Part shown: positions 1-51,127 of the stretch, one piece after another | How positions within the stretch are numbered: the first letter of the stretch is position 1 | Layout: every line of letters starts with the position of its first letter | Source of the DNA: an uncultured Collinsella sp. | GTDB taxonomy: Bacteria > Actinomycetota > Coriobacteriia > Coriobacteriales > Coriobacteriaceae | NCBI GenBank assembly: GCA_902469055.1 | Contig: CABRBC010000009.1 | Coordinates: 16,655 to 80,654 of the forward strand | Direction: 5' to 3' | DNA: 64,000 nt | Program-made: the position numbers and the translations under genes | Notes under the pieces: model-generated | Seen by the model: the letters and a program-made list of their open reading frames with translations, nothing else | Databases searched by the model: none | What the model was told of the DNA's origin: nothing

Positions 1-1271
1 ACGCGCCCGTAAACGACGGCGGCAACTCCACGTTCGAGATACCCGTCACGCTCGACGAGGACATCGCCGTGTCGGCCGAGACCGTCGCCATGTCGACGCC
101 GCACACCATCGACTACACGCTCCACTTCGACTCATCCACCATGAAGGAGAAATCGGGCGACGATGCAAGCGGCGGCTCCCCTGCGGGAACGGCTTCAAGC
201 GCCGCGGCCGACTTCCACAACGCTGATTTGGGCTGCGGCTGGGAGCCGACGGGGGCGCTTCAGCTTGAATACGCCAAGCACTTCACTGTCGACGAGTTCG
301 AAGGCGGCTTGCGGCTTATCTGCGTTTCGAACGGGGAGCGCTTCCTCGTGGTGCCGCAAGATGCGAAGGTACCTGACGGGTTGAGCTCCGACATCGCGGT
401 CATAAGACGCCCCGCCGACAAGGTGTACCTCGTGTCGTCGGCGACGATGTGTCTGGTCGACGCGCTCGATGCGAACGACAATATCTTAATGTCGGGCACG
501 AAGGCCGACGATTGCTCGGTCGCGGGCTTCAAAAGCGCGCTCGAAAGTGGGGCGATCGCCTACGGCGGCAAGTACAGCGCGCCCGACTACGAGCGAATAT
601 CGGCCTCGGGCTGCACGCTCGCCATCGAGAACACCATGATCAACCACACGCCCGATGTGAAGGAAAAGCTGCAGAAGCTCGGGCTCGTCGTGCTCACCGA
701 ACAGTCGTCGAGCGAGCCCGAAGCACTCGGACGCGTCGAGTGGATTAAGCTTTTCGGCGTCCTGTTCGACAAGGAAGAGGAGGCCGCGCACCTGTTCAAC
801 GAGCAGAAGGCCCGCGTCGAGCAAACGTCGGGGCTCGCGTCGTCAGGTAAAACCGTGGCGTATTTCTACATTAACTCGAACGGGGCCGCCGTCACGCGGC
901 GGAGGGGCGACTACGTGGCGCAGATGATCGAGCTCGCAGGCGGCAGCTACGCGCTCGATGACGCACAGACGGCGTCGACGTCAGGTTCGTCAGTAACGCT
1001 CGAAATGGAGCGCTTCTATGCGACGGCGAAGGATGCCGACATCATCGTCTACAACGGCACCATCGACGAATCGGTTGCCACCTTGAGCGACTTCGTAAGC
1101 AAAAACGCGCTATTGTCGCAGTTCAAAGCCGTGAAGAACGGCAACGTCTGGGTCACAAGCGCCGACATGTACCAGCAGATGACTTCTACCGCCGACATTA
1201 TCGACGAACTGCACGGGGCGTTCACCGGCGATGATGCGAGCGACTTCCATTATCTGAGGAAGCTCGGCTAG
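1..1271 (+). CDS. ABC transporter substrate-binding protein, iron-siderophore/cobalamin (FecB/BtuF-like) family. The 5' end is probably outside the window.
   Basis: ORF 69..1271 (GTG at 69) stays open in frame back to nt 3, and no signal peptide is visible, so the N-terminus is likely missing. Translation has type III periplasmic-binding-protein character (DKVYLVSSATMCLVDAL..., C-terminal helical lobe). It is followed immediately by FecCD permease and ATPase genes. Confidence 0.7.
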   Translation, partial: APVNDGGNSTFEIPVTLDEDIAVSAETVAMSTPHTIDYTLHFDSSTMKEKSGDDASGGSPAGTASSAAADFHNADLGCGWEPTGALQLEYAKHFTVDEFEGGLRLICVSNGERFLVVPQDAKVPDGLSSDIAVIRRPADKVYLVSSATMCLVDALDANDNILMSGTKADDCSVAGFKSALESGAIAYGGKYSAPDYERISASGCTLAIENTMINHTPDVKEKLQKLGLVVLTEQSSSEPEALGRVEWIKLFGVLFDKEEEAAHLFNEQKARVEQTSGLASSGKTVAYFYINSNGAAVTRRRGDYVAQMIELAGGSYALDDAQTASTSGSSVTLEMERFYATAKDADIIVYNGTIDESVATLSDFVSKNALLSQFKAVKNGNVWVTSADMYQQMTSTADIIDELHGAFTGDDASDFHYLRKLG

Positions 1272-1275
1272 CACC

Positions 1276-2316
1276 ATGAGAAGCCGGCTTTCCATGGCAT
1301 ACGACGAATCGGGACGCGCCGCGCGGTGTCGCGTCGTGACGGCGCTACTCGCTGTTGCCCTCATCGTGCTCGTCGGGGCCAACCTGTGCATCGGGAGTGT
1401 GCTCGTGCCCGCAGACCACATCCCCGGCATCCTTTCGGGCGGCGCGGCCAATTCCATGGAAAGCCAGATCATCTGGGAGATTCGCCTGCCGCGCGTGCTT
1501 TCAGCCGTGCTTCTCGGCGGGGCACTTTCGCTCTCCGGATTCCTGCTGCAGACGTTTTTCAACAACCCCATCGCCGACCCGTTCATCTTGGGCGTCTCCT
1601 CGGGCGCAAAGTTCGTCGTCGCGCTTACGATGATCGTACTTCTGGGCGCGAACCAGGCCATGTCCTCGCCGGCCATGGTGGCCGCAGCGTTTCTGGGCTC
1701 GCTTATCACCATCGGCTTCGTGCTCCTCATCGCACGGCGCATAAGTTCCATGGCCATGCTGATCGTGGCGGGCGTCATGGTAGGATACATCTGCTCGGCG
1801 GCGACGAACTTCCTCATCGCCTTCGCCGACGACCAGTCCATCGTGAACCTGCACAACTGGTCTTTGGGTAGTTTCTCCGGTTCGAGCTGGGACGACGTCG
1901 CGGTCATCGCGGTCGTGGTGATCGCCATGAGCGCATGCGTATTCGCGATATCGAAGCCCCTTTCCGCCTTCCAGCTGGGAGAAGCCTACGCGAAAAGCGT
2001 CGGCGTGAACGTCGCACACTTCCGCGTGGTGCTCGTCCTTCTAGCGAGCATGCTCTCCGCCTGCGTGACCGCGTTCGCTGGTCCGGTGTCGTTCGTAGGC
2101 ATCGCGGTTCCGCATCTCGTGAAGTCGGCTCTGAGGTCGTCGAAGCCCATCCGCGTGATTCCCGCGTGCTTCTTAGGAGGCGCCATCTTCTGCGCGGGCT
2201 GCGATTTGATCGCGCGCACGCTGTTCTCCCCCGTCGAGCTTTCCATCAGCGCCGTCACCGCCATCTTCGGCGCGCCGGTGGTTATCGCGCTCATGTTGAA
2301 GAAGCGGGTGAGGTAG
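1276..2316 (+). CDS. ABC transporter permease, FecCD/BtuC family
   Basis: 346 aa, multi-TM, typical FecCD motifs (ILLGGALSLSGFLLQ..., PVSFVGIAVPHL). Starts 5 nt after the substrate-binding-protein stop. Confidence 0.85.
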   Translation: MRSRLSMAYDESGRAARCRVVTALLAVALIVLVGANLCIGSVLVPADHIPGILSGGAANSMESQIIWEIRLPRVLSAVLLGGALSLSGFLLQTFFNNPIADPFILGVSSGAKFVVALTMIVLLGANQAMSSPAMVAAAFLGSLITIGFVLLIARRISSMAMLIVAGVMVGYICSAATNFLIAFADDQSIVNLHNWSLGSFSGSSWDDVAVIAVVVIAMSACVFAISKPLSAFQLGEAYAKSVGVNVAHFRVVLVLLASMLSACVTAFAGPVSFVGIAVPHLVKSALRSSKPIRVIPACFLGGAIFCAGCDLIARTLFSPVELSISAVTAIFGAPVVIALMLKKRVR

Positions 2317-3537
2317 ATGGGGAAATTTGTGCCGCGGCCCAAAACGCTCCGAGCGGAGTCGAACCTCGAAACCCCGGTCGAAACGCAGGCTGACGGAGCG
2401 CCGCTTTTCCGCATAAGCGACCTGTCGGCGGGCTACGACAAGAAGGTCGTAGTCGAAGGCGTCGATCTGGAGGTTCGCGCGGGCGACGTCGTGGCACTCA
2501 TCGGGCCGAACGGCTCGGGCAAGTCGACCATCTTGAAAACCATCACACGCCATCTGGCACCGCTTGCCGGCGCGGTCGAGCTCGACGGGCGGGAGATTTC
2601 CCGATGGAAGACGGCGGAGTTCGCAAGGAGCCTTGCCGTTATGCTGACAGATCGCCCCCGGACCGAGCTCCTCACCTGCCGCGATATCGTAGAGGCGGGA
2701 AGGCATCCCTACACCGGGCGAATGGGCACACTCTCGCCCGACGACCATAGTCGGGTCGACGAGGCCATGAAAACCGCACATGTGGAAGAGCTCGCCGAGC
2801 GCGACTTCATGCAGATAAGCGACGGGCAACGCCAGCGCGTCATGCTCGCACGCGCCATCGCGCAGGATCCGCGTGTGCTCGTGCTCGATGAGCCCACGTC
2901 GTATCTCGATATCCGCTACCAGATCGACCTGCTGCGAATACTTCGCCACCTTGCGAAATCGCGGAATGTTGCTGTCATCATGTCCATCCACGAACTCGAG
3001 CTCGCGCAGAAAAGCGCCGACAAGGTGATTTGCGTGAAGGACGGCCGGGTCTTCCGCGCCGGCGCACCCGAGGACATATTCACGCGCGAGACGATTGGCG
3101 AGCTCTACGGCCTTAAACATGGCACCTTCAACGAGCGCTTCGGCAGCGTGGAAATTGGGCGCCCACACGGCGATGCGCACACGTTCGTCATCGCTGGCGC
3201 AGGTACGGGGTCGGCTGTGTTTCGCCAGCTCATCCGACAGGGCAAGGCGTTCTACGCGGGCGTTCTGCACGAAGGGGACATCGACTGCGAGCTCGCGCGC
3301 GACCTGGCGACGGAATGCGTGGCCGAGCGCGCCTTCGAGCCGATCGGGGATAAAACCATAGCCCGCGCCAAAGAGCTCCTCGTCCACTGCGCGCGCCTTA
3401 TCGTGTGCCCCGCCGCCTTCGGCACCATAAACGCCCGCAACGCAGAGCTCGTCGAGTTTGCACGCTCGCATGGTATCGAGGTCATGCGAGCGTGCGAAGG
3501 CGCATCGGAGGATTCCCATTTGGAGTGGGAAGAATAA
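2317..3537 (+). CDS. ABC transporter ATP-binding protein (FecE/BtuD-like) with an extra C-terminal domain of about 140 aa and unknown function
   Basis: Walker A GPNGSGKST, signature ISDGQRQRV, Walker B VLVLDEPTSYLD. The start overlaps the permease stop. The canonical ATPase ends near ...ELYGL at about aa 265. It is followed by an extension containing a Gly-rich IAGAGTGS motif. Confidence 0.85.
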   Translation: MGKFVPRPKTLRAESNLETPVETQADGAPLFRISDLSAGYDKKVVVEGVDLEVRAGDVVALIGPNGSGKSTILKTITRHLAPLAGAVELDGREISRWKTAEFARSLAVMLTDRPRTELLTCRDIVEAGRHPYTGRMGTLSPDDHSRVDEAMKTAHVEELAERDFMQISDGQRQRVMLARAIAQDPRVLVLDEPTSYLDIRYQIDLLRILRHLAKSRNVAVIMSIHELELAQKSADKVICVKDGRVFRAGAPEDIFTRETIGELYGLKHGTFNERFGSVEIGRPHGDAHTFVIAGAGTGSAVFRQLIRQGKAFYAGVLHEGDIDCELARDLATECVAERAFEPIGDKTIARAKELLVHCARLIVCPAAFGTINARNAELVEFARSHGIEVMRACEGASEDSHLEWEE

Positions 3538-5836: not shown

Positions 5837-5913
5837 TGGTAGCCCGTACCAGATTCGAACTGGTGATCTCCGCCTTGAGAGGGCGGCGTCCTAAACCGCT
5901 AGACGAACGGGCC
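5837..5913 (-). tRNA. tRNA-Glu (anticodon CUC), copy 1
   Basis: Reverse complement is GGCCCGTTCGTCTAGCGGTTTAGGACGCCGCCCTCTCAAGGCGGAGATCACCAGTTCGAATCTGGTACGGGCTACCA. It has a 7 bp acceptor stem, the Glu-type GTCTAGCGGTT D arm, anticodon loop CUCUCAA, a GTTCGAATC T-loop and an encoded CCA. Confidence 0.85.
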
Positions 5914-5935: not shown

Positions 5936-6012
5936 TGGTAGCCCGTACCAGATTCGAACTGGTGATCTCCGCCTTGAGAGGGCGGCGTCCTAAACCGCTA
6001 GACGAACGGGCC
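5936..6012 (-). tRNA. tRNA-Glu (anticodon CUC), copy 2, identical to copy 1
   Basis: Exact duplicate of the 77 nt tRNA, 99 bp downstream in direct orientation. Confidence 0.85.
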
Positions 6013-48651: not shown

Positions 48652-49179
48652 TTACGCCTCGATGCGACGATACGTCACGAACTCATAATTGACGCCCTCG
48701 TCACCCTCACCGGCGGCAATCGTCGCGACCCCGCTACGCTGCGCAATCTCCCACGCGGGATCGGCGTCCAAGTCGGGAAAGTACGTGTCCACGGGATGGA
48801 CGCAGTGGTCATGAGTGACCTCGGCCTCCACGCAGTACGGCAAAAACTGCCGATAGACATCGCCGCCACCGATCACCCAGGCAACGAGCTCATCGGCAAC
48901 CGCAGAGAGCGCTTCGTCAACGCTATGCACCACGTCGACGCCCTCGTGGGTAAAGCCCATATCGCGCGTAAGCACGATATTGCGGCGGTTCTTGAGAGGA
49001 CGCCCGCCGGGAAAACTCAGCAGCGTCTTGCGTCCCATGATAACCGGGCGGCCCTTGGTGCAGGCCACAAAATGGCGCATATCGGCGCGATTGGACACCA
49101 CCATGTCGCCCTCGCACCCAATGCCCCAATCGTCACACACGGCGACGATAGCAGATAGCTTACACGTCATGAGCACCAC
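48652..49179 (-). CDS. folA: Dihydrofolate reductase
   Basis: SAIVAVCDDWGIG...RPVIMGRKT...GGG motifs. GTG start immediately after the thyA stop. Confidence 0.85.
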   Translation of the reverse strand: MVLMTCKLSAIVAVCDDWGIGCEGDMVVSNRADMRHFVACTKGRPVIMGRKTLLSFPGGRPLKNRRNIVLTRDMGFTHEGVDVVHSVDEALSAVADELVAWVIGGGDVYRQFLPYCVEAEVTHDHCVHPVDTYFPDLDADPAWEIAQRSGVATIAAGEGDEGVNYEFVTYRRIEA

Positions 49180-50028
49180 CTACACCGCAATGGGAATGTT
49201 CTTGACCTGCGGGCCGTGCTCATAGCCCTCGACGATCAGGTCATCGGTCGTAAACGCATAGAAGTCATGCACATCGGGGTTGAGCGTTACCTTGGGTGCC
49301 GCAAACTGCGGACGCTCGATAAGCTCGCGGACGATATCGACATGACGATCATAGATATGGGCGTCGGCGATCACGTGCAGCAGCTCACCGGGAATCATAT
49401 CGACCGACTGCGCGACCATCATCAGCAAAATGGCGTACTGGCACACGTTCCAGTTGTTCGCGGCCAAAATGTCCTGGCTGCGCTGGTTGAGAATCATGTT
49501 GAGCGTCGGCTTGTCGTCCTGAGGACGCTGCGTCACGTTATAGGTCACGCTATAGGCGCACGGATAAAGGTGCATCTCGGACAGATCGCTAAACACGTAC
49601 GTATTGGTCATAATGCGGCGACTATACGGCGTGTGCTTAAGGTCGTACAGCACACGGTCCATCTGGTCGAAGTCGCCCTCGACGTAATGGCTCTTCTGAC
49701 CAATCTGATAGCCGTAGGCTTTACCGATGGAACCGGTCTCATCGGCCCACTCATCCCAGATATGGCTGTTGAGATCATGCACGTTATTGGACTTCTTTTG
49801 ATAGATCCACAGAATCTCGTCCATGGCAGACTTAAGCGCCGTACGACGCAGGGTGAGCGCGGGGAACTCCTCGCGCAGATCATAGCGCGCCGTGACACCA
49901 AAGTTTTTAATGGTAAAGGCAGGGGTGCCGTCCTCCCACACCGGACGGACCTTTTGGCCCTCGGTGGTGGTGCCATGGTCCAAGATATCGCGGCACATGG
50001 TTACAAACTGCTGATCAGCTTTGCTCAT
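49180..50028 (-). CDS. thyA: Thymidylate synthase (ThyA)
   Basis: ThyA fold motifs including the catalytic Cys context (...HLYPCAYSVTYNV...). Start MSKADQQ with RBS AGGAGGG (the ORF track is 42 codons longer). Confidence 0.9.
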   Translation of the reverse strand: MSKADQQFVTMCRDILDHGTTTEGQKVRPVWEDGTPAFTIKNFGVTARYDLREEFPALTLRRTALKSAMDEILWIYQKKSNNVHDLNSHIWDEWADETGSIGKAYGYQIGQKSHYVEGDFDQMDRVLYDLKHTPYSRRIMTNTYVFSDLSEMHLYPCAYSVTYNVTQRPQDDKPTLNMILNQRSQDILAANNWNVCQYAILLMMVAQSVDMIPGELLHVIADAHIYDRHVDIVRELIERPQFAAPKVTLNPDVHDFYAFTTDDLIVEGYEHGPQVKNIPIAV

Positions 50029-50165
50029 TGACCCTCCTGTCAGTCGCCTATAAGCGAGATTTATTGTAGCCCAGGCGCGCGAGTGTCGAATTGGACACTT
50101 AGTCCGGCACACGCAATGCACGGCAGCGCGGCTCCGCATGCGGCAACGAGGCATCTTAGCCTTTT

Positions 50166-50232
50166 TCTGACATATGACAGAAATGCCTTGCGCCCAACGA
50201 CTAACGCGTTATCCTATTGTTGACATATGTCA
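50166..50232. promoter_or_regulatory. Pair of palindromic operator-like sites, TGACATATG(T/A)CA, in the divergent thyA / DUF134-gene promoter region
   Basis: tcTGACATATGACAga at 50166-50181 and tTGACATATGTCAga at 50220-50234 are about 40 bp apart. The second is a perfect 12 bp palindrome lying 9-20 nt before the start of the DUF134-NifX gene. Confidence 0.5.
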
Positions 50233-50240
50233 GATAAGGA

Positions 50241-51011
50241 GTGTGCATGGCAGGAAGACGCGAAAAACTGCGCCGCGTCGGGATCATCCCCGAATACCGC
50301 GGCTTTACCCCCGATGGCCTGGCCAGCGGTGATGCCATCGACATGCCCGTCGACGAGCTTGAGGTGCTGCGCCTGTGCGACCTGGAAGGTCTCAACCAAG
50401 AGGCGGTCGCCCAGCAGATGGGCATCGCCCGCGCAACGGTGGCGGCCATTTGCAGCCGCGCGCATCGCAAGGTGGCCGATGCGCTGGTCAACGGACGAGC
50501 GCTCGTCATCGAGGGCGGCAATATCGCGTACTCCCCCATCGCCACGACGACGGCCGCATGGCCAGCAAAGGAGGTCGGCACCATGAGGGTGGCAACGACG
50601 TACGACAACGGCAACATCTTTATGCACTTTGGCCGCAGCGAGCAGTTCAAGATCTACGACATCCAGGATGGCAAGGTGCTCAACGAGCAGGTCGTAGGCA
50701 CCGGTGGCACCGGCCACGGCGCCTTGGCGGGCCTGCTTGCCAACGGTGTCGTTGACACGCTCATTTGCGGCGGTATCGGCGGCGGCGCTATCAACGCGCT
50801 TGCCCAAGCCGGCATCACGGTCTATGCGGGCGCCCAGGGCAGCTGCGATGCCTGCGTCGAGGCCCTCATTGCCGGCACGCTCGCACAGAACGGCGAGGCC
50901 ACCTGCGACTGCCATGGACATGATCACGAGCACATCCACGAGCATGGCGAGTCCTGCGGCTGGCCCCGGCACCACCACCCAGACGGGCACGAAGGCTGCG
51001 GCTGCCACTAG
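50241..51011 (+). CDS. Fusion of DUF134 (UPF0251, predicted sigma-70 region-4-like DNA-binding) with a NifX/NafY-like FeMo-cofactor-binding domain, ending in a His/Cys-rich metal-binding tail
   Basis: N-terminal MAGRREKLRRV...ELEVLRLCDLEGLNQEAVAQQMGIARATVAAICSRAHRKVADALVNGRALVIEGG matches the DUF134 pattern. Residues about 120-220 (MRVATTYDNGNIFMHFGRSEQFKIYD...ICGGIGGGAINALAQAGITVY) match the dinitrogenase FeMo-co (NifX/NifB C-terminal) domain. The C-terminus is CDCHGHDHEHIHEHGESCGWPRHHHPDGHEGCGCH. Confidence 0.75.
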   Translation: MCMAGRREKLRRVGIIPEYRGFTPDGLASGDAIDMPVDELEVLRLCDLEGLNQEAVAQQMGIARATVAAICSRAHRKVADALVNGRALVIEGGNIAYSPIATTTAAWPAKEVGTMRVATTYDNGNIFMHFGRSEQFKIYDIQDGKVLNEQVVGTGGTGHGALAGLLANGVVDTLICGGIGGGAINALAQAGITVYAGAQGSCDACVEALIAGTLAQNGEATCDCHGHDHEHIHEHGESCGWPRHHHPDGHEGCGCH

Positions 51012-51067
51012 CGGCAAGCACCTCGTCGAGAACGCGCTTCCACGCGTGCGACAACCAGCGAACAAAC

Positions 51068-51107
51068 GGCGAAGGCCGCCTGGAATACCATCCAGGCGGC
51101 CTTCGCC
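51068..51107. terminator. Bidirectional terminator hairpin (17 bp perfect stem) between the convergent DUF134-NifX gene and ffh
   Basis: ggcgaaggccgcctgga-atacc-atccaggcggccttcgcc. No canonical U-tract. Confidence 0.45.
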
Positions 51108-51127
51108 ATACACGACTCAACTAGTCG

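Follow-up and report, generated by a model that had tools for sequence, protein, structure and literature searches.

The window analysed here, a 64,000-nucleotide stretch of DNA from an uncultured Collinsella sp. (assembly GCA_902469055.1, contig CABRBC010000009.1, positions 16,655 to 80,654 of the forward strand), carries a gene at 50247-51011 whose product fuses a DUF134 (UPF0251) DNA-binding module to a NifX-like domain with a His/Cys-rich C-terminal tail. On comparative grounds we consider it probable that this protein is a one-component, negatively autoregulated transcription factor whose NifX/ORP-type half responds to a ligand. The open reading frame (ORF) 50241-51011 (+) was present in the program-made ORF list of the window, with a G+C content at third codon positions of 0.81 against 0.66 for the antisense ORF. 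The first-pass annotation, made from the sequence alone, had found this ORF and given its product 256 aa; its start is most likely ATG 50247, with a product of 254 aa, because 254-aa homologues open with MAGRRE and an AAGGAG motif precedes this codon. Coding features were placed as follows.

50247..51011, plus strand: coding sequence of the DUF134-NifX-like fusion, 254 aa plus stop, monocistronic (ORF list, homologue starts, Pfam)
50236..50241, plus strand: ribosome-binding site (RBS) AAGGAG, 5 nt ahead of ATG 50247, its GGAG conserved in the Collinsella alignment
50253..50525, plus strand: DUF134 (UPF0251) module, residues 3-93 (Pfam PF02001)
50352-50474, plus strand: sigma-70 region-4-like helix-turn-helix (HTH), residues 36-76, with a recognition helix beginning G-I-A-R-A-T-V (Arg62)
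50583..50903, plus strand: NifX/NafY/ORP/IssA-type domain (PF02579, IPR003731), residues 113-219 (Pfam, PDB profiles, Foldseek)
50904..51008, plus strand: His/Cys-rich C-terminal tail, residues 220-254, with 11 His and 5 Cys, starting at Cys220 and ending in C-G-C-H

Both domain calls of the first-pass annotation were borne out by profile searches. At the N-terminus, residues 3-93 matched PF02001 with an E-value of 9.1e-21 (74.7 bits, cut-off 27), and the region-4-like character proposed for this module was recovered by Sigma70_r4 (PF04545) at residues 36-76, just above threshold (26.2 bits, cut-off 24.1); the NCBIfam DUF134 model PRK04217 gave a partial match (65.9 bits, cut-off 115). The family motifs are present, namely the N-terminal basic arm M-x-R-x-x-K-x-R-x-[IV] ... 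P and the HTH M-x-[IV]-[AS]-R-x-T-V ... A-R-x-K, with R4, R9, P15, M58, R62, T64, A72, R73 and K75 invariant or at least 90% conserved in the family. In an AlphaFold2 model of the N-domain (predicted local distance difference test, pLDDT, 89.2), the HTH core superposed in Foldseek on sigma region 4 and -35-binding domains with 0.5-0.9 Å over 46-49 residues. Region 4 alone was matched, with no match to sigma region 2 or 3 and 26 bits against a cut-off of 42.9 for the extracytoplasmic function (ECF) sigma superfamily model, and identity as a sigma factor was rejected on this ground. HTH_5, the winged helix of ArsR/SmtB proteins, had no Pfam match in the fusion protein. A cysteine census found none in the whole Collinsella DUF134 module or in the linker; most fusion relatives have two Cys in the N-terminal arm and many at least three in the linker. 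Any metal site of the Collinsella protein would therefore have to lie in the C-terminal half. The view that DUF134 is without established function agrees with our literature searches, in which no functional paper on DUF134/UPF0251 (operator, regulon or role) was found.

The C-terminal half matched Nitro_FeMo-Co (PF02579) at residues 121-208 (E 1.3e-19, 70.7 bits, cut-off 26.3) and carries the conserved motifs H127-F-G, G-H157-G-A-L and L-I-C174-G-G-I-G. PDB profiles matched TM1816, PH0822, MTH1175, ORP and MJ0327, and Foldseek gave template modelling (TM) scores of 0.82-0.87 to PH0822/TM1816, with further matches to NifX (9ian), NafY (1p90) and ORP (2wfb). Assignment to NifX proper failed, with only 21% identity to the NifX of 9ian, no nif context in the window and a nifB model score of 16.7 bits against a cut-off of 343.65; so did assignment to MrpORP (NF041136), for which 69.7 bits were obtained against a cut-off of 450, over the C-terminal 100 profile positions only and with no P-loop domain.

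The tail, quoted exactly in the first-pass annotation, comprises 35 residues with 11 His and 5 Cys and is predicted to be disordered (pLDDT <50 from residue 223). It opens with Cys220 (C-D-C-H), which is invariant among diverse fusions; in these the last 35 residues hold a median of 12 His plus Cys (minimum 8), and 53 of 120 proteins end in CH. The first-pass annotation had raised the possibility of a frame artefact. For the tail as a whole this was rejected, as all diverse fusions examined carry such a tail with the invariant Cys220, while one seven-residue patch is suspect: W239-P245 (GWPRHHHP; nt 50961-50981) stands in place of the CGCHGHH[DE]H of all related Collinsella loci and protein clusters, differing from the closest locus (L001) by compensated +1/-1 indels and three substitutions. 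Only one contig on record encodes the exact protein, and the patch occurs in no other relative examined; sequence comparison leaves it as either a strain allele or an assembly error.

Probable operators and promoter of the fusion gene

The first-pass annotation had placed two 12-bp palindromes upstream of the gene and read them as autoregulatory operators. Both cores were located, TGACATATGACA at 50168-50179 and TGACATATGTCA at 50221-50232, and each extends to a 16-mer with the consensus palindrome TCTGACATATGTCAGA. The DUF134 module, as the comparisons described below show, reads this 16-bp inverted repeat, and its two copies bracket the fusion gene's own promoter, with the second one covering the inferred transcription start.

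50166..50181, no strand: operator O1, TCTGACATATGACAGA, one mismatch to a perfect 16-bp palindrome, centred about -48 from the inferred transcription start
50188..50215, plus strand: inferred core promoter, -35 TTGCGC at 50188-50193, 16-nt spacer, -10 TATCCT at 50210-50215
50219..50234, no strand: operator O2, GTTGACATATGTCAGA, with a perfect 12-bp core at 50221-50232, between -10 and RBS and over the inferred transcription start

The two operators sit in a 26-nt direct repeat, spaced 53 bp. With up to three mismatches to TCTGACATATGTCAGA allowed, they were the only two sites in the 64-kb window, against 0.14 expected from shuffled sequences. Footprinting was based on 80 related loci retrieved with an alignment of seven sequences; the closest homologues are from Collinsella, as are 77 of the 80 loci, which places the window in a genome of the Collinsella aerofaciens group, and the 90%-identity cluster of the protein has 5,339 member sequences. 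Among 56 distinct Collinsella upstream sequences, O1, CTTGC, TATYCT, O2 and GGAG were at least 97% conserved at most positions, and the approximately 19 nt between CTTGC and TATYCT varied freely. A scan for sigma-70 consensus promoters made no call at this promoter, which was instead deduced from the conserved blocks: the CTTGC/TTGCGC block would be the -35 and TATCCT the -10, so placing O2 over the transcription start. The second site had been described as overlapping the -10/RBS area; it lies between the putative -10 and the RBS and does not touch the -10.

Fusion relatives also occur in Ruminococcus, Lachnospiraceae and Oscillospiraceae, and the operators recur there. Protein similarity was used to fetch 13 independent fusion lineages (Collinsella and L077, L079, L080/81, L082/83, L084, L085/86, L087/88, L089, L090, L211, L212 and L213), and in every one a YGACATATGTCR-type palindrome lies between the -10 and the RBS, immediately behind the -10. 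The Firmicute orthologues (44-55% identity; Bilifractor, Ruminococcus, Lachnospiraceae, Oscillospiraceae-type metagenome-assembled genomes and metagenome contigs), in which the palindrome follows a TATAAT-like -10, lie among genes entirely unlike the Collinsella setting. Their promoters run in the order O1 aTTGACATATGTCAg, 17-nt spacer, TATAAT, O2 TCTGACATATGTCAGA, AAGGAG, ATG; O1 has the -35 hexamer TTGACA as its left half, O2 abuts the -10, and 15 of the 18 promoters with two sites have their operators 33-34 bp apart. With one operator over the -35 and the other over the presumed start site, this layout is that of a tight repressor. Collinsella differs in that O2 is kept and O1 lies upstream of a separate -35, 53 bp from O2.

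In a reverse search of JGI metagenomes with the perfect 16-mer, 22 of the at least 120 matches listed lay just upstream of a DUF134 gene or operon, 18 of them fusions and four stand-alone; by our own estimate, the chance expectation for such adjacency is well under one, if a genome holds no more than about one DUF134 gene. The operator also changes with the protein. The helix motif TQ..ARTT pairs with TGACATATGTCA (seven lineages fetched by protein similarity, and 18 of the 21 proteins that adjoin perfect T-type sites), TH..SRTT with CGACATATGTCG (five lineages) and TH..SRST with CGGTATATACCG (three lineages). Three proteins were picked as a prediction test of this recognition code, two SRST proteins at 59-67% identity to the first SRST example and P0312, an SRTT protein despite 69% identity, and the predicted operator was found in all three cases; operator specificity therefore appears to follow the helix residue, not overall relatedness. 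Such covariation would be expected if the DUF134 HTH reads the operator directly. Footprinting, conservation across phyla, enrichment at DUF134 genes and protein-operator covariation, all of them comparative, thus speak for the autoregulatory operators, and the gene conforms to the class of autoregulated repressors in having cognate inverted repeats on its own promoter that are conserved with it.

An origin of the palindromes outside DUF134, whether as sites of another factor (LexA/Cheo-box-like or CRP/FNR-like), as an element of the divergent thyA-folA operon or as chance or hairpin sequence, was also weighed and is very improbable. In its favour, thyA is the divergent neighbour in the window, and the remaining 16-mer matches included an unrelated small winged-HTH family, a repeated element, terminator-like hairpins, IS200-like ends and 16S rRNA. 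Set against these, the motif accompanies DUF134 genes across phyla and changes in step with their recognition helix, its two window sites exceed the 0.14 expected, none of the Firmicute loci has thyA, and within Collinsella the distance from O1 to thyA is not conserved. The Cheo box is GAAC-N4-GTTC, whereas the half-sites here are spaced GAC-N4-GTC; on this spacing and the covariation with DUF134, a LexA/Cheo-box or CRP-type origin was rejected.

Several of the other matches recur. The perfect 16-mer, with extra TGTCAGA/TCTGACA copies, precedes an unrelated winged-helix protein of 109-113 aa (MLEPILGS.NAERVL...RRRPRRRGKPL; weak HTH_29 match only) on environmental contigs, 13 loci of which show the ORF (L105, L110-L112, L119, L128, L141, L158, L179, L181, L185, L187, L191) and one more (L202) the same repeat context; these proteins look like a second autoregulated family on the same palindrome. 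Ten contigs (L093, L095, L104, L108, L139, L142, L151, L171, L199, L208) share the context ...TTCAGCAAAG[CA]-TCTGACATATGTCAGA-TCTGC..., which is a recurrent element. The palindrome was also seen beside an IS200/IS605-type transposase fragment (L172 102-500) and in a short contig end (L134 77-130), both probably unrelated to DUF134. No recurrent target other than DUF134 genes that would fit this regulator was found among the matches listed.

Divergent genes and wider locus

The first-pass annotation had further suggested that the protein might gate thyA-folA. This was not supported by the comparisons, which place the thyA-folA operon outside the circuit: thyA adjacency is confined to Collinsella (0 of 12 Firmicute fusion loci have thyA nearby), the stretch from thyA to O1 varies in sequence and by tens of bases in length among Collinsella species, and O1 lies far upstream of a conserved TACAAT near thyA, which is taken to be the thyA -10. 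The thyA-proximal part of the intergenic region contains an 18-bp palindrome, AGTGTCGAATTGGACACT, at 50082-50099, within a segment of about 90 bp (~50070-50160) that is present at fewer than half of the Collinsella loci; in most species its place is taken by a shorter, dissimilar sequence. The surrounding features are as follows.

49180-50031, minus strand: thyA, divergent neighbour of the fusion gene
48652-49179, minus strand: folA, beyond thyA on the divergent side
51068..51107, no strand: hairpin with a 17-bp stem between the convergent fusion gene and ffh (RNA fold of 51009-51125)

The fusion gene is the sole plus-strand gene within a run of minus-strand genes, with thyA, folA, a SpoU methylase and a MatE transporter on its divergent side and ffh, ftsY and smc on its convergent side. 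The fold of 51009-51125 (-53.6 kcal/mol, z-score -7.2) makes the hairpin a likely bidirectional terminator. About 40 further annotated genes in the window are housekeeping or transport genes, with no nif genes among them, in accord with the earlier remark that nitrogenase genes are missing nearby. Rfam shows no RNA element near the fusion gene, and a riboswitch or leader explanation was dropped; its only matches were two minus-strand tRNA genes at 5840-5913 and 5939-6012, 25 bp apart and with identical Rfam scores. At 69-3534, where the window starts, is a siderophore/cobalamin-type ABC importer (Peripla_BP_2, FecCD, ABC_tran), with no DUF134-type operator near it.

Operons of relatives and the response to ligand

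Three stand-alone DUF134 genes to which the palindrome search led (L103, L186, L192) lie behind the same two-operator promoter, in operons that open with a DUF5320 gene followed by the DUF134 gene; those of L103 and L186 continue with a NifX-like protein and two MinD/ParA-type ATPases, which according to Pfam on L103 carry ferredoxin domains. The DUF5320 proteins (L103 2104-2397; L186 1977-2258; L192 2707-2940) are rich in Gly, Arg and aromatic residues, a composition that resembles the thioferrate-binding tail of IssA (PMC5524996), though as a resemblance only; no functional work on DUF5320 or on the operator sequence turned up in the literature searches. The stand-alone NifX-like protein closest to the C-terminal half of the Collinsella fusion, with 55-60% identity and the same His/Cys tail, is encoded by the last gene of an operon begun by a DUF134 gene (L214/215). 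This operon (L214 1384-5417; also L215, L216) comprises DUF134, a 94-aa Cys/His membrane protein with HAHDCVGSDCTVC, an ABC ATPase, a MacB/FtsX permease, a 325-aa lipoprotein and the NifX-like protein with its tail; its DUF134 protein has the helix motif SRAT, and the operators are hybrids, TTGACATATACCAA and TAGCATATACCAA. Since stand-alone DUF134 and NifX-like genes share operons with the same promoter type, the Collinsella fusion is, on the evidence of these loci, a condensed form of a regulator and NifX-like pair common in anaerobes.

The NifX-plus-tail module is moreover fused to ArsR-type HTHs (P0255, P0261), in which alone HTH_5 was found, and to Mrp/ParA ATPases (P0262, P0176), and the PF02579 domain to FKBP (P0216). 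Recurrence with such varied partners would be typical behaviour of a ligand-binding or sensor unit.

Taken together, these data suggest the following mechanism. The fusion protein would bind its operators as a dimer and block RNA polymerase, in part by competing with sigma region 4 for the -35-like half-site; that DUF134 is a dimerised relative of region 4 acting in this way we infer from a half-site equal to the consensus -35 and from the superposition of the N-domain model on region 4. The NifX/ORP-type domain and the tail would bind a transition metal or metal-sulfur species, with a consequent change in DNA affinity; metal or cofactor sensing is suggested by domain homology, tail composition and occasional efflux-gene neighbours. 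In the favoured direction, ligand excess would lead to release from DNA, because the informative neighbours are of efflux type: a chromate-transporter pair 25 bp downstream of the fusion gene in L079, a desulfoferrodoxin and a CDF transporter beside it in L084, and the ABC-transporter operon of L214/215. Derepression would then supply more ligand-binding protein along with the ligand, making the protein a self-limiting sensor and buffer, and in the relatives the same release would induce the co-transcribed efflux or ORP-like genes.

The opposite direction is unlikely, although it has points on its side. In Fur, Zur and NikR the metal-loaded form is the DNA-binding form, and by analogy a metal- or cluster-loaded fusion protein would bind as a co-repressor complex and be expressed at ligand scarcity, as a scavenger or chaperone. 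The operator geometry fits either direction, nickel and zinc chaperones have His/Cys-rich tails like this one, and the orthologue in L213 (3098-4786) lies divergent from the Fe-S assembly genes sufC-sufBD across a 166-bp intergenic region, an operon typically induced on Fe-S shortage. Counting against it, neither decisively, are the efflux-type genes close by and in the same orientation (L079, L084, L214), the usual pattern of derepression, and the occurrence of the sensor module on ArsR-type HTHs, a family whose paradigm is derepression.

We regard it as more doubtful still that the protein is a self-dosing carrier or storage protein without allostery, in which DUF134 merely keeps the concentration constant. 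Such a role would suit a gene that is usually monocistronic and for which no other target was detected in the window or the flanks of relatives, and stand-alone NifX-like proteins bear the same tail; the characterised PF02579 proteins are carriers or stores, not sensors (PMC6345978, PMC5524996). Against it, stand-alone DUF134 proteins share their operators at whole ORP-like and ABC-transporter operons, so DUF134 would be a bona fide operon regulator, and the NifX-tail module has been joined repeatedly to HTHs of two unrelated types, as sensor domains usually are.

Several points weigh against the ligand-responsive autoregulator itself. All of its support is sequence comparison, and the tail that would help to hold a ligand is predicted to be disordered; the NifX-like domain could serve only dimerisation or cargo binding. 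The direction of response rests on the three efflux-type contexts only. Each class in the covariation is represented by only a few lineages, and three of the 21 proteins depart from the rule; the HTH core is short, and its match to sigma-4 accordingly has weak Foldseek E-values (0.06-0.6). The neighbourhood of the fusion gene is mostly unconserved, and further operators were found neither in the 64-kb window nor in the flanks of relatives.

Significance and comparison with known systems

The fusion itself is already known from database labels, which describe such proteins as 'predicted DNA-binding protein (UPF0251)/predicted Fe-Mo cluster-binding NifX family protein'; new here are the operator, the promoter layout, the recognition code, the tie to ORP-like operons and the idea of a -35 mimic. 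PF02579 'NifX-like' proteins and ORP-type clusters are widespread in non-nitrogen-fixing anaerobes, and the fusion protein, abundant in the human gut, may represent a new sensor family for metals or iron-sulfur species in the anaerobes living there, a proposal that can be put to the test. If true, the circuit would bear on metal homeostasis of major commensals, and a reporter on the fusion promoter would read the intracellular signal directly. As a tentative extension, more speculative than the autoregulatory circuit, sigma region 4 may have given rise to a so far overlooked family of dimeric repressors, the DUF134 proteins, which would read the -35 hexamer as an inverted repeat, in direct competition with the housekeeping sigma factor, and together with NifX-type domains, whether fused or separately encoded nearby, would form the dedicated sensor-regulator of ORP/NifX-like metal-sulfur systems in non-diazotrophic anaerobes, with the Collinsella fusion as a minimal sensor, regulator and ligand buffer in one, for Fe-S or thiometallate-type species and not for a free metal ion.

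A one-component autoregulated sensor-repressor is a familiar kind of system built here from unfamiliar parts. ModE and NikR likewise fuse a small DNA-binding module to a metal- or oxyanion-binding domain of a type that handles the same ligand elsewhere; the logic is the same, but the folds of both halves are unrelated, and no sequence or structure match to either was found. ArsR/SmtB proteins are also small dimeric repressors with imperfect palindromic operators on their own promoters and are often co-transcribed with efflux genes, and P0255 and P0261 join the same NifX-plus-tail module to ArsR HTHs. They differ in having a winged helix, where the fusion has a sigma-4-like HTH with extra beta-strands, and in having their metal sites inside the winged-helix dimer and not in an appended PF02579 domain. 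With sigma-70 region 4 and the ECF sigma -35-binding domain the fusion shares the HTH core, and the operator half-site TTGACA is the housekeeping -35 and, in Firmicutes, the actual -35; unlike region 4, it reads an inverted repeat, which implies a dimer, and it has DUF134-specific N-terminal strands and a C-terminal hairpin.

In the ORP clusters of Desulfovibrio (Orp3/4/5/8/9) and in MrpORP, Orp8 and the MrpORP C-terminus contain the same PF02579/IPR003731 'Di-Nase' domain as the C-terminal half of the fusion, and the operons with DUF5320, DUF134, NifX-like protein and two MinD/ParA-ferredoxin ATPases match the Orp3/Orp4/Orp8 gene content (PMC6345978). The Collinsella gene, in contrast, stands alone, with no ATPase or DUF5320 partner nearby, and control of the ORP cluster in Desulfovibrio vulgaris falls to sigma-54 with the enhancer-binding protein DVU2106 (PMC4641369) instead of a DUF134 protein. 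The MrpORP Di-Nase domain binds a [3Fe-4S] cluster (PMC6345978), for which the CxHFGHCE cysteines have been proposed; the Collinsella domain lacks these and has the His/Cys tail instead. ORP binds a Mo-Cu sulfide cluster, and other relatives bind nitrogenase cofactor precursors, according to work cited in PMC6345978 and PMC5524996. Finally, IssA, which binds thioferrate and stores it in Pyrococcus furiosus, also combines a globular PF02579/IPR003731 domain with a C-terminal tail that lacks structure and is the proposed site of the inorganic ligand (PMC5524996); that tail is cationic, rich in Gly and aromatic residues and has one Cys, whereas the tail of the fusion is acidic and rich in His and Cys, and the fusion, unlike IssA, has a DNA-binding domain.

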